From Candidatus Bathyarchaeota archaeon (GTDB taxonomy: Archaea; Thermoproteota; Bathyarchaeia; 40CM-2-53-6): a stretch of DNA of 64,000 nt. Below the pieces are notes generated by a model. The model worked only from the letters and a program-made list of their open reading frames with translations, made no database searches and was not told where the DNA came from. Shown here one piece after another: positions 6,754 to 51,201 of the stretch. Numbering within the stretch: the stretch's first letter is position 1; each line of letters begins with the position of its first letter. The stretch is taken from positions 1 through 64,000 of the forward strand of contig CAWHWX010000014.1 in the NCBI GenBank assembly GCA_963833125.1. The letters are read 5' to 3'. A program made the translations under genes and the position numbers.

Positions 6754-6891
6754 ACTAGAAAATCACAATGTCGATGAGAATTTTCGTGGGTTTTTCATCT
6801 CCAAATCAACATGCCGATAGACGTGTCCGTCTCCGACAATGGGTTTTATATATGGTCACGGGCCGGAGCGTAATCATTCTCTTTCGGTTAG

Positions 6892-11328: not shown

Positions 11329-11427
11329 GCGTCCGCGCCCTCAAAAGGCGCCCGTACCTCTTTCTCTATTTCGTTGTTCACTGAAACACGAGAGTACCTA
11401 TGTGAAAACAGGTTGGAGGATTGGCGC

Positions 11428-12308
11428 ATGAGGAGCATTTCACTAATCGGTGTACCACTTTACACTCTAACAAAATATAGCGGACTTGGCCTAGCCGTAG
11501 AGACTCTTCGCAACCTTGGAATCGACCGGGCGCTGAGAAAGCGATGTGTCGAATTCAGGGACTGTGGAGACGTCGCTCTCCCGCAACTTACTAAGGACGA
11601 CGGTCCGCCCAAAATTAGAAACAGGGAGTATTTCCTCGAATGCACAGAGCACGATCTCCAGCGCAGTCAAAGGGAATCAGCGAAGAAGGCTTGAGCTTCT
11701 ATCTTGGAGGAGAATGCGGCCTGGCGGTTGGCAGCCCGGCAGGCCTCAAACAACAACTCCCAGGCAAACCGGGGTTATTGTGGATTGATGCGCATGGAGA
11801 TTTCAACACTCCAGAAATCTCTCCATCAGGTTTCGTCGGAGGCATGCCTTTAGCAATCATGTGCAGTCGAAGCCCTCAATTCAGTCAACAGATTGAGAAT
11901 CAGCAACCCATCATTGATGAGAACGCCGTCGTGCACCTGGGTGGGAGAGATTTCGATCTCTTGGAGTCAGGAGCCATAAGGTCGAGTAGAATGAAGATCT
12001 ACTCACCCTCAAAATTCCAAGATAATCCAGAGAAGCTAGCCGAAGAAATCGCTGAAACTCTAGCTAAGCAATCTGACTGGATAATCTGCCATCTTGACGT
12101 AGACGCAATCGATCCTACAATCATCTCCGCAGTCAACTACCCATGCAGAAACGGGCTGGCTCCAGAGGATGTCAACACGGTGGTGGCAGCGCTAAGCAAG
12201 ACGGGGAAGCTGCGAGCGTTCAACCTGACCGCCTATAATTCAACTCTCGATAAGGATGGAGAATGCGGAAAAACTATACTTGACCTCGTCGCCAAACTTC
12301 CACTCTGA
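11428..12308 (+). CDS. Arginase family (ureohydrolase); frameshift near 11646
   Basis: LGGEC, WIDAHGDFNTPE.SPSG..GGMPLA, HLDVDAID. Confidence 0.85.
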
Positions 12309-12329
12309 TCAAAATTCAGCTGACCAAAA

Positions 12330-12560
12330 TGGTTCGGGGCAGAGAATTCCGACCCCAATTTACCGGTACATCTGTTCTTGCATGAGACGGGTTTGAACTC
12401 AGTAGGGTCCTAGGTGGGAATGGTTTGAACCGGAAAGTTCGCAGCTACTTCGAATGATGGTTTTCTTTTCTCCACCGCCGTTAGGGATGAGTAACATGTT
12501 CTCCCCACAAATTACACCACCCCACCCCCCCCATCCCACCTATGGGTTGGCGGGCCCGCC
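12330..12560 (-). repeat. ~230-bp tRNA-end-bounded dispersed element, copy A
   Basis: Reverse complement is closely similar to 40831-41050. Begins with GGCGGGCCCGCCA (tRNA 3' end) and ends in a 21/27 match to the tRNA-Leu 3' end. Confidence 0.85.
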
Positions 12561-12578
12561 GAGATGTGAACTGGAAAA

Positions 12579-12733
12579 TGGTGCGGGGAAGGGGATTCGA
12601 ACCCCTGAAAGCCTACGTGCCCTGTGTGGGCTCTACGCTACAGGATCCCTTCTCCAAGTCAACTTTTCGATCTTAAGTTTAACACCGCAACTTTCGCGGT
12701 CCTGCCCCTTTGACCTGGCTCGGGTATCCCCGC
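12579..12733 (-). tRNA. tRNA-Leu(TAA) with three BHB introns (30/31: 12679-12700; 37/38: 12647-12671; variable arm: 12613-12632), encoded CCA
   Basis: Removing 22+25+20 nt gives an 88-nt cloverleaf with CAGGA-CTTAAGA-TCCTG anticodon arm. Each junction forms a BHB-type motif. Confidence 0.9.
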
Positions 12734-24972: not shown

Positions 24973-25126
24973 CCCGCGGTAGCTCAGCTTGGTAGAGCTT
25001 CCGAGTCCCTCTTCATAGGAGTGACGGAGACGCTGTAGGTGTGCGCCCAAGGCGCATCCATGTCAGCCTACTAAGCTAACAACGGACACCGGACTGTCGC
25101 TGGTTCAAATCCGGCCCGCGGGACCA
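24973..25126 (+). tRNA. tRNA-Tyr(GTA) with two BHB introns (30/31: 25004-25031; 37/38: 25039-25087)
   Basis: Removing 28+49 nt gives a 77-nt cloverleaf with C1-G72 and TCCGG-CTGTAGA-CCGGA arm. Confidence 0.9.
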
Positions 25127-28868: not shown

Positions 28869-29029
28869 GGGCCCGTAGCTCAGTCAGGTAGAGCATCGGT
28901 GACGCCGTGTGGGCGTTGGTGAGGCTTTTACCTCTGGGCGGTTCGAACCCATGGGAAGCCACCCGAAAAGCTTGGCTTAGAAGCTAGCTTGGGTAGGGGT
29001 CCCGGGTTCAAATCCCGGCGGGCCCGCCA
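28869..29029 (+). tRNA. tRNA-Lys(TTT) with three BHB introns (30/31: 28900-28923; 37/38: 28931-28960; 43/44: 28967-28996)
   Basis: Removing 24+30+30 nt gives a 77-nt cloverleaf with TCGGG-CTTTTAA-CCCGA arm; helices CATC/GGTG, CTTT/GAAG, ACCC/GGGT. Confidence 0.9.
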
Positions 29030-40818: not shown

Positions 40819-41050
40819 GGTTCTAATCCCGGCGGGCGCGGCAACCCGTAGCTGGGATGGGGGGGGTGGTGTAATTTGTGGGGAGAACACGTTACTCATC
40901 CCTAACGGCGGTGGAGAAAAGAAAACCATCATTCGAAGTAGCTGTGCCTCTTTTTCGGTTCAAACCATTCCCCACTCGGACCCTATTGAGTTCAAACCCG
41001 GATTTTGCAAGACTCAGATTCTGTAAATTGGAGTCAGAATCCCCTACCCC
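40819..41050 (+). repeat. ~230-bp tRNA-end-bounded dispersed element, copy B
   Basis: Starts with a 22/25 match to the tRNA-Lys 3' end (29005-29029); body matches copy A (GGTGTAATTTGTGGGGAGAACA..TTACTCATCCCTAACGGCGGTGGAGAAAAGAAAACCATCATTCGAAGTAGCTG). Confidence 0.85.
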
Positions 41051-41124
41051 ATCTCTGCTTTAGTTGGCTCGGTACGAGGCTCTCCCCAAGAAACGAAGAC
41101 GGCGGGAAAATGCGATTAATTCGT

Positions 41125-41271
41125 TCAGAGTTTGTGTTCTAGTGCTTTGATTCGGCGTTCGAGTTCTTCGACCCGTCTCGTGAGACCGTGGATAGCTTTG
41201 TGATGACCGTAACTGTGATCCACAAGATCGTCGAACAGTTTCTTCAATTCCCGAGCGGTCTTCTCTTCCAC
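41125..41271 (-). CDS. Small coiled-coil protein (~48 aa); absent from the ORF track
   Basis: (M)EEKTARELKKLFDDLVDHSYGHHKAIHGLTRRVEELERRIKALEHKL, heptad pattern. Confidence 0.5.
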   Translation of the reverse strand: MEEKTARELKKLFDDLVDHSYGHHKAIHGLTRRVEELERRIKALEHKL

Positions 41272-41445
41272 CAAACCCAATCGACCAACAATTGATCCCC
41301 CCGTTATTTATTCATGATTTTAACAGGTAGTTTTGTGTCGGTCTCGTACTGCACACATAAGTAATCTTCCTGAGATTCATCTATAGTCCTCCAAGCGTCA
41401 AGTCAAAAGTTTTTCACCAGCATTCGACTGCGCAGCTGCGGGCGT

Positions 41446-43235
41446 ATGACTACGGCAGCAGCGAAGAAGACCTCGGAGGAACGGGAAGAGGCAAGAATCG
41501 GTATGCTCACCATAATCTCCGGAATCATCGGTCTTAGCCGCAGGATTTCTCGCTTATCATTCTTTACCATCTGATAGGCTTGTTGACAAACCTATTTTTC
41601 TATCAGAAATTCAATTTTTCGTTCGCGTCGCCGCAATACAATACACTTGGATTACTGGTCATACTGGTCCCAGCTTTCGGTGGATTGATTGCCGGCTTAA
41701 TGATCAAGTACGGATCAGCGAAAATTATAGGTCACGGGATACCTGAAACGATCGAGTCCGTTCTCCTATCGAAAAGCAAAATCGAACCAAAAGTCGGACT
41801 TCTGAAAGCTCTTTCCGCTGCCTTCACGATCGGATCCGGTCAACCCTTCGGGGCGGAGGGGCCGATAATTCAGACCGGTGGCGCCTTTGGTTCGTTTATC
41901 GGGCAACTGATCAGCGTTACTGGTTCTGAAAGAAGGATTCTGTTAGCCTGTGGCGCTGCCGCGGGGATGGCCGCGACATTCGGCACACCGATATCGGCAG
42001 TCTTTCTGGTGATAGAACTTCTTCTGTTCGAGTTTCGCGTCAAGTCATTGATCCCAGTGGCAGTAGCCTCGGCGATAGGTGCGTGGATGCATATCTACTT
42101 GATATCTCCTCAACCCCTGTTCTCGACATCTGTGCACAGTTTCGGAGGGCTCGACTCACTCCCATTCTACGTCCTGCTGGGGATATTATCGGGGTTGCTT
42201 GGAACGGGCCTTTCCCGTGGTCTTTACAAAACAGAAGACGCGTTTCGTAAACTTCCTCTCGGTCAGCCGTGGTTGCCGATTCTTGGCGGCCTCGCCGTCG
42301 GCGTGATCGGCTTTGTGGTACCCAAGATACTCGGCGTGGGATACGATGTGATAAACGCGATTATCAATTCCAAAGTGACGTTAGAACTGGCAACTCTGAT
42401 CTTGATTACGAAGGCAGTGGCTTGGCTGCTTGCGATGGGGTCTCAAACTTCGGGTGGTACACTCGCGCCCCTCTTCATGGTTGGTAGCGCACTTGGCCTC
42501 ATCTTTGGAACCATTGTAGTTGCGTTCTTTCCAGGACTCGGTATAGTTCCTACAGTGTTTGCGATTGCAGCCATGGCCGCTGTATTTGGAACCGCGTTGC
42601 GGGCTCCTTTCACATCAATCGTGTTCGCCCTGGAAGTCACGCAGGCCTACCAGGGAGTTCTCCCAGTAATCATAACGGTAGTGATAGCAGAATTGGTAGG
42701 TGAGTATCTCATGGCAGATTCTATTATGACCGAAAAGTTGGCTCGAAGGGGAATGAGAGTCCGTCACATATACGAATTCAATCCATTGCGGCAGGTCAGA
42801 GTTTCTTCGCTAATGTCCCCGCTCCAAGCAATTGACGCAAGAGAGAAGGTCGTCGATTTGTTCAAGAAGATTAACAGTCCTGGTAATGAGCTCGGTAAGA
42901 GGAAACACATTGTTGTTCTCAAAGACGGGAAAGCCGTAGGTGTTGTCGACAGACCTCAATTGTTTGAGGGAGCCTCGAAGGCTGATCCGGATATGATGGT
43001 AGAAGTGATTTCCTCCAAGTCCTTCCTAACTGTTCCTGAGGATGAATTTGGCTTCGAGGCGATGAGGTTAATGACACTGAATAATGCTCCATTCCTTGTG
43101 GTCGAGAACAAGGAGCATAATCCAGTAGGATATCTTTCGAGAGGAGACCTAATCCGGGCTCAGAAAGACAAGATCTCGGACGATACAATCGTTGAGAAAG
43201 GCCTCTTGGCTCGATTTATGCAAAAACGACCATAG
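41446..43235 (+). CDS. ClC chloride channel/antiporter with CBS domains; N-terminal frameshift near 41540
   Basis: GHGIPE, GAEGPII, GGTLAP, C-terminal CBS pair. Confidence 0.9.
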
Positions 43236-43462
43236 AACATAGAACAATCTAACAACTCTTCAAATCGCTATACTCCACCCTGTTTTCATGTATGTGATAT
43301 CCATGGTGTGAGACTTAGAAGGTAAATCGCCGTCGTTCGCGTTTTCGTGTGTGTGGCCGGTGAAATTTGAATCGTCGGAGATGTGATTCAGATCGGCCCA
43401 ACGCAATACTTGGTTCTTCTTATTTCGAGTAAATTCGTTACCAATGAAGTGACTGCTCGCAG

Positions 43463-43942
43463 CTAGTGAGTTTGAGTTCTTGATGCTATTGCGGCGTGTG
43501 CAAGTTTTTCCCCGGGTGAGCCTCTCCAGCCACGTATTGTCCTCCAGAGATTGTAGAAATGCAGGTACAAAGCGATAACCAGTAAGGAGAGTGAGCCGAG
43601 CACAAGAAACTTCGAATCGAAACTGTAAGGGAGCATTCCGGAAAAACCTACGCTCATTCCGATAACTCCGATATTCATCAACCAAAATTGGATCTTCGCA
43701 AGTCTTAGGCTATGAAGGAAAGCATGAGCGAATGATGGAACAAACAGGTAGGACAAACCGAATATCATCATTGCCACGAAACCATAAAGCTGCATGAAGT
43801 AGAATGCTGTCATCTCAAAAGAAAGCACGTGACCGAAAGTCAGCAGAAGCAACGTCCCTCCTGCAACAAGGTAAATGAGACTTGCCTTCACATACCTTAA
43901 ACTCAGCTGCATAACGACAGCCGCAATCGGCCCCTGAGCCAA
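43463..43942 (-). CDS. Four-helix membrane protein (heme-copper oxidase subunit-like/NnrS-like segment)
   Basis: LYGFVAMMIFGLSYLFVP, IQFWLMNIGV. Confidence 0.6.
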   Translation of the reverse strand: MAQGPIAAVVMQLSLRYVKASLIYLVAGGTLLLLTFGHVLSFEMTAFYFMQLYGFVAMMIFGLSYLFVPSFAHAFLHSLRLAKIQFWLMNIGVIGMSVGFSGMLPYSFDSKFLVLGSLSLLVIALYLHFYNLWRTIRGWRGSPGEKLAHAAIASRTQTH

Positions 43943-44781
43943 AATCGTAATACCAGCATCTCAGCGTCCAGGTTCTATCAATATTAGTGTAACTGAAAAT
44001 AAGGCGAAGTTTTCTCTGTCAACTCACCAACGATTGAGCGCCGATGGTATCCTCTGCTGTGAACCCACAATCCATCGGTATAAGTAGCGTCTCGATCCGG
44101 CAACGGTTGGGTTGAAGCGTTAGACCGTAAGCTTTTGTTGCACCAACTACTGTCCGCTCGAATGAATCATAGGAACAATCAGGGAAGAGTCAGCGGGGTG
44201 CAAGTACGTTATGGTGAAGAAGACTAAAGTGAAGTGTGTTGCATGTGGGACCGTTGTGCGCGGCCGTCCCGCTTACTTGAGATTGAAGATTACTCATAGT
44301 CAACCAAGTTTGATTGAGTCATCGAAAGCGTTGGGCTTCACCTCGCCAAGTTGGGGAATTGGAGATGTTATGGATGCTCCGATGCATCGTAAGTGCTTCA
44401 GCTTTGCTACACGGGTGTGGAAGCTTGCCTTCGTCACGCGGGCTCTCAGTCCGCGCCGTCACGCCGGCGAACTGCCCCATCCATCCGTTTAGGCTGCCAA
44501 TGTTTCCATGCTGGTAAGAACCTTGAAATGTCCAACTTGTCCGCATTCCTTGAGCAACCATTGCTGTAGGTGTGACCGTATCATCCCACCCGAGAATCAG
44601 CAGCTCAGAATCCGTCCACTGAGGAACAAAATCAGCAGCGATCTCAGCCTGCATCTGCTATGCGAACAATGCTACGAAGATAGAGCGAGAGCAGCTCAAC
44701 AGGTCTAATGAACTACGTTGGAGTTCCCCATGGAGGGCATCTAGTCTGTGGGTGTGGGTCTAGTGGCGCGGGCAAGCAAAT

Positions 44782-44826
44782 TTGAAACGGGTTATATATA
44801 CCGGTAAATTGGGGACAGGATTCCCT
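44782..44826 (+). repeat. Short boundary motif, copy C (upstream of the rib operon)
   Basis: TTGAAACGGGTTATATATACCGGTAAATTGGGGACAGGATTCCCT; imperfect direct repeat of 50270-50314. Confidence 0.7.
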
Positions 44827-44882
44827 TAGCGACCTCTAAGTCTTACTCGGGACAAATTGTGGGATAACTTATTTTTTAGTTC

Positions 44883-44959
44883 CTACGATCGTAGTAGTAA
44901 CGCTTATTAGATGTTGCACGGATCTACTCGTAATTTAGTTAATACTCATTTACTAGTAA
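44883..44959. promoter_or_regulatory. AT-rich region upstream of ribB with palindromes, possible operator sites
   Basis: Perfect palindromes CTACGATCGTAG (44883-44894) and TTACTAGTAA (44950-44959). Confidence 0.35.
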
Positions 44960-44981
44960 TCGATAAATACCGTTTTTCGCT

Positions 44982-45704
44982 GTGTTCGGTGATATGATGA
45001 CCTCTGAGTATCTAACGAACAATCTCGATGCTGCGATTAGCGGATTGAGAGAGGGGAGATTCCTCCTGCTTCATGACTCGGACTCTCGGGAAGATGAAGT
45101 GGATATGGTCGTCGCAGCTGAGCGAGTTACTCCAGAACACATTAGAGCGATGAGAACCGACGCGGGCGGTCTAGTGTGCGTTGCTCTCGATAATGAAATT
45201 GGACGAGCTTTAGGGATCCCGTATCTGCAGGACGTTCTTTTGTCAGCCTCGGAGAAATACCCTCTCCTTCGGTCACTTCATGAAGAAATCGCACCCTACG
45301 GGGGGAAGTCAGCGTTTTCAATAACTGTAAACCACCGACGAACCTTCACAGGCATAACTGATCGAGACAGAGCGCTAACAATCAGAGAATTGGCAAAGCA
45401 AACCAAAGCCGCTGTTAACAGAGAAGCAGATTGTCAGAAAACATTTGCTTCGGAATTCAAAGCTCCGGGACACGTACACCTCCTCTTGGAGGCTCAAGGT
45501 TCACTGAGAGAAAGGCGTGGGCACACGGAGTTATCGGTGTACTTGACTAAGCTCGCAGGCCTGACCCCAGCCGCCGTAATCTGCGAGATGCTTGATGGGA
45601 AGACTCACGACGCGCTCACCGTTGAAAACGCAACAAATTACGGTCAAATGCATTCGATCCCGCTCCTGGATGGGCAGCAATTGGTAACCCGTTTTCTGGG
45701 ATAG
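44982..45704 (+). CDS. ribB: 3,4-dihydroxy-2-butanone 4-phosphate synthase
   Basis: DSDSREDEVD, SAFSITVNH, TGITDRDRALT, PGHV, RRGHTE, ICEML. Confidence 0.95.
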   Translation: MFGDMMTSEYLTNNLDAAISGLREGRFLLLHDSDSREDEVDMVVAAERVTPEHIRAMRTDAGGLVCVALDNEIGRALGIPYLQDVLLSASEKYPLLRSLHEEIAPYGGKSAFSITVNHRRTFTGITDRDRALTIRELAKQTKAAVNREADCQKTFASEFKAPGHVHLLLEAQGSLRERRGHTELSVYLTKLAGLTPAAVICEMLDGKTHDALTVENATNYGQMHSIPLLDGQQLVTRFLG

Positions 45705-45736
45705 AACCCGAACCGGCCTCACCACTAGCGATCATT

Positions 45737-46198
45737 ATGCCTGACGTCAAATTGGGGATAGTAGTGGCTGAATTCTACGAAGAATTAGCCGGGAAAATGC
45801 TAAAACAAGCCCTGAAACACGCCTCGGAACTCAACGCCCTAACCACCTACGTCTGCAAGGTTCCAGGTTCATACGACATGCCCATTATGATTCAGGCCTT
45901 ACTTGAGAAGAATGACGTTGACGCTGTAGTCACTTTGGGTGCAATAGTGCGCGGGAAAACCAAACACGACGAGGTCATCGCGCATGCACTCGTCACCAAA
46001 ATGGTGGAACTATCTCTCCGCTACAAGAAGCCTGTGACGCTTGGAGTCGCCGGCCCAGGGATGACATTTCAGCAGGGGAAGACCCGGTCGAAGGACTTCG
46101 CGAATCGAAGTGTGGGCGCTGCTATCAAACTGGTTCTTCGCCAGAGAGACCTAACAAAACGAAGGTTGAATCCGACTTATCCGGTAGTGATAGAATAA
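45737..46198 (+). CDS. ribH: 6,7-dimethyl-8-ribityllumazine synthase
   Basis: LGIVVAEF, VPGSYDMP, TLGAIVRGKTKHDEVI. Confidence 0.9.
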   Translation: MPDVKLGIVVAEFYEELAGKMLKQALKHASELNALTTYVCKVPGSYDMPIMIQALLEKNDVDAVVTLGAIVRGKTKHDEVIAHALVTKMVELSLRYKKPVTLGVAGPGMTFQQGKTRSKDFANRSVGAAIKLVLRQRDLTKRRLNPTYPVVIE

Positions 46199-46966
46199 TT
46201 GAGCATCAATCAAGTCCAAATGACGTTAATCCAACTTGACAATTACGGACCTTGGACCGGGACGCTCGGCAGCGATAGAGAACATAAGCTTCAGATCCTT
46301 CAGGCAGAGTTGTACTCCGCGATTGAAGGAAGTTTTGCTGACCGAGGAGGACTCGTTTTCTTCAACAGATTTGACGAAATGCTAGCCGTCTCAAACGGCA
46401 TAACAGAAACTGAGCATAAGAAGATCATTGACGATTTGCAAAAAGAATTCCCGGTAACCCTCAGCATGGGCATAGGAGTAGCTAAAACGCCTTTTCAAGC
46501 CCAGTTGAGGGCGTCCAAACTTCTCCAAGAGAGAGGAAGCGCTCAATCGCCGACAAGAAGAAGCATGATCGCTCACCAAGGATCTCTAGAATTAGCTAGG
46601 TCCTATGTCCAGGTTGCCCATTTCGACATCGATGGGATAACTGAAACCCACACAGATCACGCCTCTGCCTACGACACATCATTGTTTATCATGACATTAG
46701 GTGCCGAACTTATGCAGTCGTTCAGAGAACAAGAAGCGCTGTTGTTCTTCGTGGGCGGCGACAACTTCATAGGCGTAGCTAACGGCGTGAGCGTTGAACA
46801 AATAGAGTCACTCCTCACACACTACCGTTCTAGAAACATCAAAATGAAGTGCGGAATCGGAATCAGCCGGGCGGGAAGGAAAGCGGCAGAACTCGCCACC
46901 CTGAACCTGGACCTCATCCGAAATACAAACGGTGGCAAATCGATTCTATCAACGACAAGTCTGTGA
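46199..46966 (+). CDS. gch3: GTP cyclohydrolase III (archaeal, ArfA)
   Basis: IQLDNYGPWT..LGSDREHKLQ.LQ, RFDEM, AHFDIDGIT, FVGGDNF. Confidence 0.92.
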   Translation: MSINQVQMTLIQLDNYGPWTGTLGSDREHKLQILQAELYSAIEGSFADRGGLVFFNRFDEMLAVSNGITETEHKKIIDDLQKEFPVTLSMGIGVAKTPFQAQLRASKLLQERGSAQSPTRRSMIAHQGSLELARSYVQVAHFDIDGITETHTDHASAYDTSLFIMTLGAELMQSFREQEALLFFVGGDNFIGVANGVSVEQIESLLTHYRSRNIKMKCGIGISRAGRKAAELATLNLDLIRNTNGGKSILSTTSL

Positions 46967-46974
46967 ATCGAACC

Positions 46975-48220
46975 ATGGAGAGCCTTGTAGAGAACGTTTC
47001 CCTAATTCTCGGTGAAGATTTTCAGGTAATCAAAAACGGCTATATCGTAATCGATGGCGGCAAGATCGCTTCAGCAGGCGAAGGAGAACCGCCCAGTTCC
47101 ACGCAGAGCTCGAGAAATGTCCTGAACGGACAAGGGCTACTTGCAATTCCAGGCCTGATTGATGCCCACACCCACCTAGCGGATTCAGTAGCCAAGGATT
47201 TGGGAACTGGGTCAAGCCTTGACGTGCTCGTCCATCCTATTCATGGGTTGAAGACTACTCTCCTCAAGGAGGCGCCTGAAGCACAGATTTGTGAGGCCAT
47301 GGCGGCGACTGCGGGAGACATGCTTGCTTCAGGCATCACTACTTTCGCAGACTTCAGAGAAGGAGGACTAGCAGGCGCTCAGTTAGCCGAAAGGGCTCTT
47401 CGCAGAAACAAGTTACGCGCACTGATTCTTGGAAGACCGAACTATCACTTCAGTGAGGAACTCGTGGTTGACGAATCGAGGCAACTAACCCCAGAGACAA
47501 TGCTCGAACTACAACAGACCCTGGAATTGTGCAGTGGCCTTGGTATAAGCGGCCCTAACGAATATAGCGATAATGCAATGAAGCAAATTTCTCGGATCGC
47601 GAAAGGCACGTGTAAACTGGTCGGAGTGCATGCATCGGAGAGTGCGAAATCGAGACAATTCTCACATGAAAAATTCTCCAGAAGTGAAGTAGAGAGAGCA
47701 TTAGATCACTTAAGGCCCGACTTCCTAGTCCATCTCACGAATTCAACAGTCGAAGAATGGGAGAGGGTTTCCAAGAACCACGTACCCGTCGTTTGCTGCC
47801 CAAGGGCAAATTCAATTCTCGGTCTAGGATTCCCACCAATCCTTGAACTCATCGAAAACGGCGTCACTGTGGCATTGGGGACGGACAATGTTATGCTCAA
47901 CACCCCAGACATGTTTAGAGAGATGGACTACACTTCGAAAATGCTTCGAGCCAAACGGACTTGACGCAGGGGCGATATCGCCAAGAGAGATATTGAAGAT
48001 GGCCACGGTGAATGCGGCGAAAGCTCTAGGATTAGGTTCGGAGTTAGGATGTATCGAGGAAGGAAAGAGAGCTGACATAGCATTCCTCAACCTGAACAGC
48101 CCTAACCTCTGCTTCTCGAAGGACCTGATATCTTCAGTCGTTCACAGAGCCAGGCCAGATGATGTAAAATGCGTGTTGATAGACGGAGAGGTCGTGCATG
48201 GGTCAATTCCCACCAACTGA
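46975..48220 (+). CDS. Metal-dependent amidohydrolase (deaminase-like); frameshift near 47950
   Basis: PGLIDAHTHLAD, DFREGG, HASES, VHLT, CPRAN, ALGTDN, MATVNAAKALG. Confidence 0.85.
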
Positions 48221-48876
48221 GTTTCACAAGAGGCCCAGAGTCCTACTCGCTGCAGCTATGACCTTGGATGGTAAGATAGCTACCCGAGCGCGAGATTCCA
48301 GTATATCATCAACGGTTGACTTGAAAAAACTCCACAGATTAAGGAGCCGGGTAGACGCAGTAATGATAGGAAGGGGAACACAGGTTAAGGACAACCCCCG
48401 CTTGACAGTCAGGCGGATAAAAGGGAAAAACCCAGTTCGAATTGTTATTGATAGTCTTGCGAGAACACCGCCAAATGCGAAGGCTTTGTCTAAAGAGGGC
48501 GGCAGCACGATTATTGCTGTGTCAAACAAAGCGCCCAAGAGTCGCATAGACCGACTGCAACTAAAGGGCGCCAGGATCATCCGCTGCGGGAATCGACATG
48601 TGGACCTCAGAAAACTACTCACAATTCTACGGAGGATGGGAATCAGAAGCGTGTTGCTTGAGGGAGGAGGTAAGCTGAATTGGTCAATGTTGCTCGAGAA
48701 ATTGGTGGACGAAATCCAGGTTACCGTATCACCATTCGTCGTCGGCGGAGAGAAAGCCACGACGTTGGTCGAAGGATTCGGTGTAGATAGAATGAGTCAC
48801 GCCGATCAGGCTGTCGCTATTAAGAGCAAACCGGAACGGAAACGAACTAATCCTGAGGTACAAGGTGAGAAATTAG
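48198..48876 (+). CDS. arfC: 2,5-diamino-6-ribosylamino-4(3H)-pyrimidinone 5'-phosphate reductase (ArfC/RibD C-terminal domain); frameshift near 48802
   Basis: AMTLDGKIA, DAVMIG, DNPRLT, LLEGGGKLN. The shifted frame gives a typical end ..GNELILRYKVRN* at 48876. Confidence 0.85.
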
Positions 48877-49637
48877 TGCAAGCCGACGCACAGCACTTAT
48901 CGACATTGACCTGGGAGAAGGTTGGGGAATCCATCAAAGCCCACACATCCAAAGTAATTATTCCCATTGGGAGTCTAGAACAACACGGCCCACATCTACC
49001 ACTCTCAACAGACACGACAATTGCGGATTACGTCGCCAAGCATGTAGCAAGACGATGCGCAGACACGTTCCTAATGCCACCATTGCAGCTTGGCTGCTCT
49101 AGTGAGCACCTTGGGTTTGCCGGAACAATATCCCTTCAGCCAGAGACGATATCCAGAATTATCCTCGACATTTCTAATAGCCTTCTGAAGAGTGGGTTAA
49201 GCGAGTTATTCATCGTAAACGGTCACGGCGGCAACAGAGGACCCTTAGACGCAGCAATAACCAAGGCCAAAGAAACGATTCCCGCAATTCGGCTTTACTC
49301 ATTTACGATCGTCGATATCGTCAAAGGAAAATTCGATGAAATTCGCAAGTCAGCAAGAGGACTTGTTGGCCACGCAGACGAGATTGAAACCTCAATGATG
49401 CTCGTCATCCAACCTGAAACTGTTGACATGTCGAAGGCAGTTTGCGAAGAACCCTCGCTGCCCAAGGGTCTATCTTTTGAAAGAGAGGACCTAGCGAAAA
49501 TGTCGTTCGCGTGGACGGCGAAGGAATTGACAAGGACGGGTGTAATTGGGGATCCCCAGGTAGCCGCCCCTGAGACCGGCAAGGTTCTGCTTGACTTTGC
49601 GATTGATTTCATTTCCAAATCAATCAACGAACTTTGA
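48876..49637 (+). CDS. arfB: Creatininase family, likely FAPy deformylase (ArfB)
   Basis: IPIGSLEQHGPHLPLSTDT, SSEH, NGHGGN, HADEIETS, GVIGDP; operon context. Confidence 0.75.
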   Translation: MQADAQHLSTLTWEKVGESIKAHTSKVIIPIGSLEQHGPHLPLSTDTTIADYVAKHVARRCADTFLMPPLQLGCSSEHLGFAGTISLQPETISRIILDISNSLLKSGLSELFIVNGHGGNRGPLDAAITKAKETIPAIRLYSFTIVDIVKGKFDEIRKSARGLVGHADEIETSMMLVIQPETVDMSKAVCEEPSLPKGLSFEREDLAKMSFAWTAKELTRTGVIGDPQVAAPETGKVLLDFAIDFISKSINEL

Positions 49638-49640
49638 AGG

Positions 49641-50249
49641 TTGCTCGAAATGTTCGCAGGCATTGTGGAGCAGCTAGCCACCGTCATCTCAACTTCGAAG
49701 CCTCCGGGCAAAACCGCTTCGATACAATTGAAACTGGGAGCCTTGGGGAAAGATGTCAGAAAGGGAGAGAGTCTATGTGTAAACGGCGTGTGCCTGACCG
49801 TTACGTCGAACCGTAAGGGAATCGTCTCTCTTAGCGTCATCGAAGAAACCTTGCGTGTCACGAACCTTGGGTTACTCGTTAAAGGCACAAAGGTAAACAT
49901 TGAGCGAAGCCTGCGGGCCTCGGACAGGATTAGTGGGCATTTTGTTTCTGGCCACGTAGACGGGATTGGAAGAATCGCACAGATAGAGCAAATGCCCGAT
50001 GGATCGGTTAAGACATGGATCAACAGCCGAACCCTCCTCACTTCAATGATGATACCCAAGGGGTCGGTTGCCGTAGATGGGATTAGCCTTACACTAGTTG
50101 ACGTCAAAGAAAATTCGTTCTCAATCTGCCTGATACCACACACGCTTTCAACTACAACACTAGGTTACAAGACCGAAGGCGCCACAGTTAACATCGAAGT
50201 GGACATGATCGGGAAATACGTAAGGAAAGCCATTGAAGAAATCAAATAA
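49641..50249 (+). CDS. ribE: Riboflavin synthase, bacterial-type alpha chain
   Basis: MFAGIVE, VNGVCLT, VNIERS, GHFVSGHVD, KGSVAVDGISLT, LIPHT. Confidence 0.93.
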   Translation: MLEMFAGIVEQLATVISTSKPPGKTASIQLKLGALGKDVRKGESLCVNGVCLTVTSNRKGIVSLSVIEETLRVTNLGLLVKGTKVNIERSLRASDRISGHFVSGHVDGIGRIAQIEQMPDGSVKTWINSRTLLTSMMIPKGSVAVDGISLTLVDVKENSFSICLIPHTLSTTTLGYKTEGATVNIEVDMIGKYVRKAIEEIK

Positions 50250-50269
50250 GAAAGCGCCAACAACATAAC

Positions 50270-50318
50270 TTGAAGCAGGGTAAATATATCGGTAAGTTGG
50301 GGTCAGAATCCCCTGCCC
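50270..50318 (+). repeat. Short boundary motif, copy D (downstream of the rib operon)
   Basis: TTGAAGCAGGGTAAATATATCGGTAAGTTGGGGTCAGAATCCCCTGCCC. Confidence 0.7.
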
Positions 50319-50400
50319 TTCTCCGGAGGGTTTGATTCGTCATTCTGACGTATACTTCAGAACAGATCAAGGCAACTAGAACAATTACTTCATGCTTCGT

Positions 50401-50589
50401 CTACGCTGGTAGTTTGGATGCTTGCTGTCCTCTTGTTCCCCAATTGGATTTTGGCACGTCGTGGATTACGATGTGCAGTGATTCGGCTTTTGTTCCGATC
50501 TCTTCAAAAGCTCTTGTTATCCCTTTGATCAGTGTCTCCTTCTGTTCTGAAGTTCTTCCTTCCCACATCTCAACTATGACTACGGGCAT
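50401..50589 (-). CDS. 4-oxalocrotonate tautomerase family
   Basis: N-terminal Pro; MPVVIVEMWEGRTSEQK...IHDVPKSNWGTRG. Confidence 0.92.
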   Translation of the reverse strand: MPVVIVEMWEGRTSEQKETLIKGITRAFEEIGTKAESLHIVIHDVPKSNWGTRGQQASKLPA

Positions 50590-50650
50590 ACGATTTCACC
50601 TCTTTGCCTAAGCGTGCATGTTGAACTAGGAGGTTTCGCCTGTAGATTGT

Positions 50651-50820
50651 ATTTACTAGTAAACTGGGCTGAAATCTCCTGCCCCATCGCCGGGGCCAGG
50701 CAGGGAAAACATGACCGGACTCGCACCTTATTTGGTTCAAGTCCCTCCGGACCCGCCGCTAATGGGGTTCAGATCCGAATTATAGAAGCTGTACCGGTAC
50801 TTGGGGGTTAGGATCTCCTT
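50651..50820 (+). repeat. Cluster of degenerate boundary motifs (E 50651-50685, F 50790-50820) and a tRNA-3'-end-like scar (50734-50757)
   Basis: TTTACTAGTAAACTGGGCTGAAATCTCCTGCCCC; GGTTCAAGTCCCTCCGGACCCGCC; TGTACCGGTACTTGGGGGTTAGGATCTCCTT. Confidence 0.55.
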
Positions 50821-50886
50821 CACGATTTCATTTCCTGGCGATTTGCATTTAAGACACGTAAATGCATGAGTTAACTGCGGGAATGC

Positions 50887-51201
50887 TTGGGTATGGCTTT
50901 CTTCCTTTGTAAGCTGATAGCTCCTCGATCAACATTCGCTCAAGACATGACCGAGTCGGAAAGAAAGCTAATGGGGGAACATGGCGGGTACTGGAGAACA
51001 TTGGCAGACAGAGGCGTCGCAGTAGTTTTCGGCCCGGTAATGGATCCTAAGGGAGCCTGGGGTTTGGGCCTCCTAGAAGCAAAAGATGAAACTGAAGTAC
51101 GCGCCTTACTAGCGGACGACCCAGTGACCAAGGCAAATGCTGGTTTCCGGTACGAGATCAATCCGATGGCTCAAGCAACATTACGAAAAGGACTATTCTA
51201 G
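50887..51201 (+). CDS. YciI family protein
   Basis: H..YW, FGPVMDPKG, LLADDP. Confidence 0.85.
   Translation: MGMAFFLCKLIAPRSTFAQDMTESERKLMGEHGGYWRTLADRGVAVVFGPVMDPKGAWGLGLLEAKDETEVRALLADDPVTKANAGFRYEINPMAQATLRKGLF

Follow-up and report, generated by a model that had tools for sequence, protein, structure and literature searches.

On plasmids of Acinetobacter, dif modules are bounded by 28-bp sites (11-6-11) that stand in alternating orientation around the modules. In Archaea, integrated elements are found in the 3' ends of tRNA genes, a thaumarchaeotal case being among those described in the available part of one report (PMC6563490). The accessible text on the tycheposon islands of Prochlorococcus describes tRNA-targeting tyrosine recombinases that remodel the islands, with newer arrivals pushing earlier ones inward, partial tRNAs and decayed elements scattered along them, and cargo carried as plug-in cassettes (10.1101/2020.12.28.424599). 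Integrons and clusters of attC sites lacking integron integrases (CALINs), with attC and IntI of canonical type, have been reported from Archaea in a paper whose available passages contain 0 mentions of Bathyarchaeia or of tRNA (PMC9668308). Here we describe a short repeat in a 64,000-nt stretch of DNA from a member of Bathyarchaeia (contig C14, positions 1-64000; hereafter the window), six copies of which, a to f, lie in the window. We take it to be, most likely, a site of DNA recombination that originated as a copy of a tRNA-Leu gene end and at which gene blocks, of one to a few genes each, have been inserted, deleted and rearranged. A limited search of the literature on Bathyarchaeota integrases, tRNA and mobile elements returned viruses and proviruses and no description of such arrays.

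The genome comprises 3.07 Mb in 39 contigs, with about 50% GC and 88% completeness. A first-pass annotation of the window had listed six intergenic variants of the repeat, and all six were present at the positions given. A profile of the six, searched against the whole genome, scored them at E = 9e-10 to 6e-6 and also matched further genomic copies, and a 28-mer consensus with <=3 mismatches gave 3 matches in the window compared with 0 in 100 shuffles. The five copies between 41 and 51 kb (b to f) are all intergenic and in the same orientation (5/5). The layout of open reading frames (ORFs) and domains agreed with the annotation that they part gene modules, namely small ORFs with a ClC gene and two further ORFs, the riboflavin (rib) operon, a tautomerase gene on the minus strand, and YciI. 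The extra upstream similarity noted for the copies flanking the rib operon was found in c and d, which have the stretch TTGAA..GGGT.ATATAT in common, and the likeness of the right half to a tRNA-Leu end holds for the window's own tRNA-Leu gene at 12733..12579 (-), which ends in GGGGTTCGAATCCCCTTCCCCGCACCA. The genome-wide profile scan that the annotation had called for, made with a profile from 169 copies, returned 14 genomic copies at E <= 2e-3 (six on C14, one on C9, one on C11, and six on C1 at 81750, 84973, 85774, 88239, 152918 and 155170), and the reversed genome gave 0 matches at E < 1. Twelve of the 14 copies fall in three clusters; single scattered copies are those on C9, on C11 and at C1:954.

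Copies were pooled from 22 congeners, named public genomes, metagenome contigs and this genome, which gave 237 profile matches, 171 of them unique, and 169 of the 171 were aligned without gaps for a consensus. Most copies were retrieved by an exact 23-mer match spanning columns 19-41, so that these columns are conserved by construction and nothing was inferred from conservation there; the arm columns upstream and the tail columns were free. The site is about 45-60 nt long and has three parts, an arm, a core and a tail. Its consensus is CTTATATGTACCGGTAAATT-GGGG-TCA(G/A)AAT-CCCC-T, after which comes either of two tails. The arm, CTTATATGTACCGGTAAATT, is 20 nt long and 70-90% conserved, and in it the TATA-like TTATATGT precedes the 8-bp palindrome TACCGGTA, of which TACTAGTA is a variant that recurs; we infer that the arm is a putative protein-binding element. 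The core, GGGG-TCARAAT-CCCC, mimics the T arm of tRNA-Leu with a 4-bp stem and a 7-nt loop, and the loop deviates from the tRNA's own TTCRAAT at the second and third bases. In class i (about 48/169 copies) the tail is (C/T)CCCCGCACCA, corresponding to the tRNA-Leu acceptor strand, discriminator and CCA (GCACCA-like). The class ii tail (about 100/169) is not of tRNA kind; it is ATCTCTGA-like, GCCCCATCTCTGA(A/G), and may be a half-site carried by cassettes. A few copies have the tail of another tRNA, CCCACCCCCGGCGCC.

Contigs from a sediment sample contain a relative that is about 94-95% identical to the window. One of these, X4 contig 31 (372 nt, depth 4.5), follows the window from 50058 to 50307 with 12 differences in 250 and continues directly with 50813-50931, with 5 differences in 119, omitting 505 nt. 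The joint lies inside the loops of copy d (50274..50329, +; loop TCAGAAT at 50304-50310), its left partner, and copy f (50786..50833, +), its right partner, with GGGGTCAG| on one side, |ATCTCC on the other and 3 letters that fit either side. The order in this strain is ribE-site-YciI, without the tautomerase block and copy e. In the same sample, X2 record 15 (6.2 kb, depth 18) covers the rib operon, and its match ends at 50307, followed by 603 nt of other sequence.

A second rearrangement emerges from comparison with a congener, G004. At its locus L039, site M1 is single, and a block X of 360 nt with a DUF167 gene is 7.5 kb away, behind site M4. Metagenome contig L143 matches the M1 locus with 98.6% identity upstream and 94.3% downstream and, in the place of M1, holds X with a site on either side. 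The left one combines M1's distinctive arm (CTTATATTTCTCGG) with X's tail and the right site combines X's arm with M1's tail, which is the outcome expected if a circle with X and one site had recombined with M1 by a crossover between arm and tail. On a further contig, L116, X with its own arm is joined to a third tail.

Homology between loci also ends at the site. Among pairs of loci with homology abutting the site, 3 shared both flanks, 10 the upstream flank only and 27 the downstream flank only. Nine of the 27 represent one group of five class-i copies, in which the downstream flank is 94-98% identical and encodes a small membrane protein, and whose upstream blocks are of at least 3 different kinds (L097 and L113 are alike). 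Paralogous stretches within the genome stop at the site as well, at 12336/41050 and at C1:85813/152880. The first-pass annotation had asked whether the sites coincide with boundaries of gene gain and loss, and the polymorphism of the d-to-f block, the L143 cassette and the flank homology ending at the site bear this out; the sites of this genome may still be active.

Among the contigs of four runs we found no circular junction leading from 50.3 kb to 44.8 kb, which would represent the rib block, and this result is uninformative either way because contigs drop rare forms. A back-joint in X4 from 44814 to 41038, with 4 letters between, was not counted as evidence because several contigs match the site alone and are unlike the window on both sides, so that it may be a copy elsewhere. 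A search of 23 genomes for an empty site, consisting of the tRNA-Leu gene and then the flank common to the five class-i copies, found no such arrangement, only more copies and one truncated remnant.

The tRNA-Leu gene itself is found beside the site. On C9, the 3' end of a tRNA-Leu gene is at 6773 and a class-i copy lies 2.9 kb beyond it, with glycosyltransferase and methyltransferase genes between. The copy and the tRNA-Leu end have 20 identical bases, GAATCCCCTCCCCCGCACCA, and the two have the geometry of the attachment sites at the left and right end of an insertion (attL/attR). The window repeats this geometry in miniature. Copy a (12329..12374, -), made of arm, core and the tail GCCCCGAACCA+TTTT, lies 211 nt from the intron-containing tRNA-Leu gene at 12733..12579 (-) and is attR-like, its likeness to the tRNA-Leu 3' end extending through CCA into the T-run. 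That gene, whose homologues include the tRNA-Leu genes at C9:6773 and on G011:C5 (genome and contig of a congener), is followed by a decayed inverted arm, TTTTCCAGTTCACATCT. Between the gene and copy a lies a 236-nt unit (12336..12571, -), which we read as the probable remnant of a small integrated element; copy a and the adjacent tRNA-Leu gene would then be the attL/attR pair around it.

On G011:C5, a multi-intron tRNA-Leu gene is followed by an ORF of 182 aa (ORF182) and a tyrosine integrase of 319 aa (PF00589, 2e-27; SAM-like N-terminal domains; phrog_1, 1e-41); the other ORFs of this element had no Pfam or PHROG match. Beyond the integrase, 13 co-oriented copies extend over 56 kb, with a class-i-like copy (tail CCCCCGCACG) at 182,603 and a class-i copy as the last, at 160,037. 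Orthologues of the ORF182-integrase pair, at 62-66% identity, are found after a tRNA 3' end on G008:C10 and G003:C1 (tRNA-Leu) and on G002:C2 and G003:C2 (other tRNA), making 5 loci in 4 congeners. At all five loci an inverted copy of the arm stands right after CCA (TTTTACCGGTACACATAA, TTTTACTAGTAAC.., ATTTACTGGTATATATAAA), which makes the arm an integrase-bearing element's terminal inverted repeat and the core that element's target in the tRNA. On G002:C2, an arm-plus-core copy fitted to the T arm of the other tRNA lies 12.2 kb downstream. Other integrase families stand beside tRNA-Leu ends on G002:C16, G021:C158 and G013:C2, indicating that tRNA-Leu is a common target in the genus.

We therefore think it probable that the repeat is an att-type junction site of site-specific recombination that uses the tRNA-Leu 3' end. 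In the congeners, an integrative element with the 182-aa protein and an XerC/D-like tyrosine integrase lies directly after a tRNA gene, with the arm as inverted repeats at its two ends. Two sites would recombine by a crossover in or beside the 7-nt loop, and the intervening DNA would be inserted, deleted or moved, so that blocks would accumulate as co-oriented arrays. The candidate enzyme is an integrase of this kind, which would make and move the junctions and would act in trans on blocks that lack an integrase. The b-f array has no intact tRNA gene at its head; such heads are present for C9, copy a and G011:C5. The 236-nt unit recurs at 40820-41050 (+), where it ends in copy b. The two units are inverted relative to each other, are 83% identical over 239 nt and bracket 28 kb with five tRNA genes, and if the segment between them were inverted, the tRNA-Leu gene would come to lie immediately upstream of b and head the b-f array.

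Among the genomes compared, the site was found only within the genus. A 24-mer with <=3 mismatches was found in 16 of the 22 congeners, with 0-22 copies in each; of 18 relatives from beyond the genus, 0 had it, and the reversed pattern used as a control gave 0 matches everywhere. Exact motif matches in named public genomes were confined to metagenome-assembled genomes (MAGs) titled Bathyarchaeia or Bathyarchaeota, or "archaeon" (one MAG, two loci). The congeners are far apart, with rib operon DNA 63-68% identical and the proteins 46-69%, and a site that is near-identical across genomes so strongly diverged requires selection or spread. Runs in the same orientation, with a spacing of 0.4-6 kb, hold 7 copies on G013:C4, 4 on G004:C45, 4 on G019:C32 and 13 on G011:C5, and all copies are intergenic. 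A class-i copy closes both runs on G011:C5 and the C1 run of this genome.

Several observations weigh against the site-specific reading. The strain polymorphism rests on a single short contig of depth 4.5, and homologous recombination between 45-nt repeats would yield products identical to those of site-specific exchange. The class ii tail is left unexplained by simple tandem integration at a tRNA gene, because the acceptor stem would be broken if this tail served as an attL, and on G019:C32 a class-i copy stands first, breaking the rule that class i comes last. Between copies lie cellular genes of ordinary kinds, on one strand or the other (argG/argH, TFIIB, arginase, ferritin, permeases, peptidases and transporters), and the GC content of the blocks, 45-53%, is like that of the genome, giving no sign of foreign origin. 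In the window, copies c, e and f are decayed, and copies b to f as a whole read as partly decayed junctions. The rib operon is flanked by sites and is single-copy, and the evidence for mobility concerns the d-to-f block and not rib itself. Its gene order is kept at 7 congener loci, at 46-69% protein identity, and none of the 7 has the window's neighbours or flanking sites; the congeners are too diverged for breakpoints to be placed by synteny at the rib locus. The sites beside the operon may thus mark the arrival of its neighbours, not a movement of its own.

The distribution of integrases weighs on the same side. There is no tyrosine recombinase in the window or on contigs C14 and C1, the 12 PF00589 matches of the genome being on C16, C22, C28 and C12. 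The ORF182-integrase family was not found in this genome (88% complete) or in three other site-rich congeners (the set comprising G000, G004, G013 and G019), and G010, a congener without any site at <=3 mismatches, has the family. The presence of a second integrase family, followed across the genus, likewise shows no relation to the number of sites. Of 1509 ORFs located within about 2 kb of a site, only 2 were integrase-like, a count obtained with the 8 integrase ORFs of this genome as queries, so that distant families may be missed. Of the coincidence with tyrosine recombinase genes that the first-pass annotation had proposed to test, what stands is the array heads in congeners such as G011:C5; it does not extend to C14 and C1 or to the genes near most sites.

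The alternative that survives best, which we nevertheless consider unlikely, is that the repeat is a selfish short intergenic element, similar to a repetitive extragenic palindromic (REP) sequence or a miniature inverted-repeat transposable element (MITE), that spreads by itself and serves as a passive substrate of homologous recombination. The lone scattered copies on C9, on C11 and at C1:954 fit such an element, as do the intergenic position of all copies and the lack of a recombinase nearby, and homologous exchange would give hybrid junctions like those of X4 and L143. REP elements, however, usually have hundreds of copies per genome, compared with 14 copies per 3 Mb here and 0-22 in the congeners, and inspection of the 171 copies with their flanks, though not a formal scan, showed no terminal inverted repeats or target duplications. 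A self-spreading repeat also does not account for the co-oriented arrays (5/5 at 41-51 kb and 13/13 on G011:C5), for a tail class that is the exact tRNA-Leu acceptor end with CCA, or for the arm that stands inverted at the integrase end of elements in tRNA genes.

Far less probable is that the copies are small RNA genes or RNA processing signals, that is, tRNA-like halves cut by tRNA-processing enzymes. A T-arm-like hairpin followed by an acceptor-like strand and CCA would suit this, and the changes in the 3' stem strand of decayed copies are mostly C to T, which would retain G-U pairs. However, the 5' acceptor strand is missing, and the loop departs from the TTCRAAT of the genome's own tRNA genes; to our knowledge, tRNAs in general do not vary in the T-arm loop. 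The stem hardly varies among the copies, so that no covariation supports a structure, and the orientation of the sites relative to genes is random. Rfam gave no family at the sites between 40 and 52 kb at E up to 10, its single chance match being off-site at 48969, and at gathering thresholds it found three tRNA genes only in the window.

We also analyzed the orientation of the site relative to genes in 97 copies with >=900 nt on both sides. The nearest downstream gene was co-oriented in 48/97 and opposite in 49/97, the four combinations of flanking-gene orientation occurred 28, 25, 23 and 20 times, and the distance from copy to start for co-oriented genes ranged from 17 to 589 nt. In the window, copy c is 155 nt upstream of ribB and copy f 67 nt upstream of YciI, each on the strand of its gene; copy d has a gene end on either side, and copy e runs antisense to the start of the tautomerase gene. 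As neither gene starts nor strands stand in a constant relation to it, the site is neither a plain promoter nor a plain terminator, and the fixed distance that had been named beforehand as the mark of a regulatory site was not what we observed. A regulatory site, with the TTATAT box as an archaeal promoter and TACCGGTA as an operator for the downstream gene in a regulon, finds favour in the TATA-like motif and palindrome of the 70-90% conserved arm and in the placing of c and f, but is already largely refuted by these orientations and distances and by d and e, leaves the tRNA tail and the rearrangements unexplained, and seems to us most improbable.

The remaining features of the window can be given in the order of the array. 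Copy b (41015..41059, +) has a decayed arm, the core GGAGTCAGAATCCCC and the class ii tail ACCCCATCTCTG. Block 1 (41060..44744) follows, with two small minus-strand ORFs, a ClC channel gene with a CBS domain (41580-43235, +) and two further minus-strand ORFs. One of the minus-strand ORFs, of 51 aa (41125-41280, -), is 90% identical to C1:83075-83218, and each of the two loci is just downstream of a site tail; the C1 ORF is parted from its site by 1.2 kb with a molybdopterin oxidoreductase gene. At 44745..44786 (+) lies a scar of a second tRNA end in opposite orientation; its reverse complement is similar to GGTTCAAAT..GCCCGCACCA together with the flank ..GACCCACACAC from a multi-copy tRNA gene. 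Copy c (44787..44846, +) has the intact arm GTTATATATACCGGTAAATT and a decayed core and tail.

Block 2 is the rib operon (44982..50249, +), with the order ribB-ribH-GTP cyclohydrolase III-amidohydrolase-RibD_C/creatininase-ribE. In the gene at 48198-49637 (+), the C-terminal reductase domain of RibD is fused to a creatininase-family domain, and the order of the fusion is the same in congener operons. A lone 190-nt fragment of a ribE 3' end lies outside the rib operon of another genome (L075, G016:C3:631648-631837) and is 81% identical to the window at the DNA level; whole operons are only about 65% identical. Beyond copy d, block 3 consists of a 62-aa tautomerase gene (50401..50589, -) that is not on the related strain's contig, and copy e (50644..50695, +) has the variant arm TTTACTAGTAAACT and the tail CCCCATCGCCGG. 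Copy f is followed by YciI (50887-51201, +).

Scars of other kinds lie near the site. The scar at 44745-44786 belongs to a family, GTGTGTGGGTC..GGTGCGGGC..TTTGAACC, that is the reverse complement of a tRNA 3' end with its downstream flank and recurs at C9:3896-4004 and C11:4790-4831, often head-to-head with the main site; its source tRNA gene exists in three near-identical copies, at C6:3380, C18:125973 and C29:4456. A third kind of tRNA-end-like scar, GGTTCAAGTCCCTCCGGACCCGCC, lies at 50715..50757 (+), where the first-pass annotation had correctly seen one at 50734-50757. This scar, GGTTCAAGTCCCTCCGG, recurs at C1:85860-85900, at C1:88605-88647 (88%) and at C18:2207-2246 (92%; read from 2246 to 2207), with two alternative tails, ACCCGCC or CTCTGACCC, much as the main site has its two tail classes. 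A further, distinct repeat, G-rich and about 40 nt long (GGGGGGTGGTGTAATTTGTGGGGAGAACATGTTAC), has six copies in the genome, at 12490-12545 (-) and 40846-40896 (+) in the window and at C28:117593-117644, C18:184616-184656, C1:365406-365442 and C1:164945-164982, and occurs at the metagenome loci L165, L206 and L222; one of the copies stands between two integrase genes on C28.

Two overlapping ORFs at 11374-12308 (+) look like a broken or frameshifted arginase gene that ends 28 nt from copy a, the second ORF matching positions 81-267 of the 280-position arginase profile; an intact arginase gene is present near the C1 array (C1:77909-78802). tRNA genes with very long or multiple introns were found at 24973-25123, 28869-29026 and 12733-12579 in the window and at C5:75436-76379 and C32:9751-11067, the introns proposed by ARAGORN reaching 856 and 1218 nt. 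Both ARAGORN and Rfam miss several intron-bearing tRNA genes, for example the tRNA-Leu at array heads.

Bathyarchaeia are abundant, uncultured archaea of sediment and soil, and gene exchange among them is poorly known. A short, recognisable junction site is a direct handle on gene flow in metagenomes, as it marks where blocks enter, leave or move, and its tie to the tRNA-Leu gene and a candidate integrase allows genomes to be scanned, cassettes to be listed and strains to be compared. If the repeat is indeed a site of site-specific recombination, annotators would in all probability do well to treat intergenic tRNA-like fragments in these genomes as recombination scars and not as small RNA genes or regulatory sites. 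More tentatively, and with the odds in our view somewhat against it, the genus may run an integron-like shuffling on a tRNA-Leu mimic, in which integrase-less circles are captured, excised and re-ordered by the ORF182/Xer-like pair acting in trans. The circles would then hold one to a few ordinary genes and one arm-core-tail site of about 60 nt, and arrays of tens of kb, extending even to the side of rib and similar housekeeping operons, would make up a lasting reservoir of chromosome segments open to exchange.

The first-pass annotation had interpreted the copies as sites of a cassette-accretion system on a tRNA-mimic core, resembling integrons or dif modules. The strain joint, the L143 cassette, the breaks in flank homology and the tRNA-integrase array heads support accretion on such a core; the system is not a strict integron and is not dif-like. 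Xer/dif modules are similar in that small gene modules are bounded by short sites and the XerC/D-like recombinase is encoded elsewhere, whereas the sites here are about 50-60 nt long, derived from tRNA and co-oriented. Integrons and CALINs likewise have co-oriented arrays of small, mostly integrase-less cassettes with a recurrent site and possible action in trans. Here, however, the site is derived from a tRNA end and is not a long imperfect palindrome of attC type (about 60-150 nt, folding as a single strand), being self-complementary only in the 4-bp stem with its 7-nt loop and in the 8-bp palindrome of the arm. No IntI with attI was found, there being no integrase beside the window's array, and the integrases at congener array heads, compared at the level of domains, have the general PF00589 and SAM-like N-terminal domains. 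Genes are also not mostly co-oriented with the site (48/97 co-oriented and 49/97 opposite), and with genes on either strand there is no common promoter logic as in integrons.

The closest resemblance is to elements with tRNA-targeting integrases and their tandem islands, in which direct repeats of the tRNA 3' end bound the inserts and arrays arise by re-use of the site. A direct repeat of the tRNA 3' part at the far end of the insert was found on C9 (20 bases), at copy a and in the GCACCA tails (about 48/169), and the integrase gene adjoins the tRNA-proximal end on G011:C5, G008:C10, G003:C1, G003:C2 and G002:C2, though not in the window or on C14 and C1. In contrast to those elements, an integrase is missing from most blocks here, a block may consist of no more than one gene of 62 or 116 aa, many arrays are not beside a tRNA gene, and the junctions retain a 20-nt arm and a non-tRNA tail across genomes about 35% diverged in their genes. 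Tycheposon islands, so far as the accessible text describes them, are organised alike, with tRNA-targeting recombinases, scattered tRNA remnants and cassette-like cargo; in contrast, the lineage here is archaeal, no replication module was found, and the junction has an arm and tail of its own beyond the partial tRNA. A junction with its own conserved arm and tail, together with integrase-less and even single-gene blocks of ordinary genes of native composition on either strand, sets these arrays apart from tRNA-integrase elements, tycheposons and integrons or CALINs.

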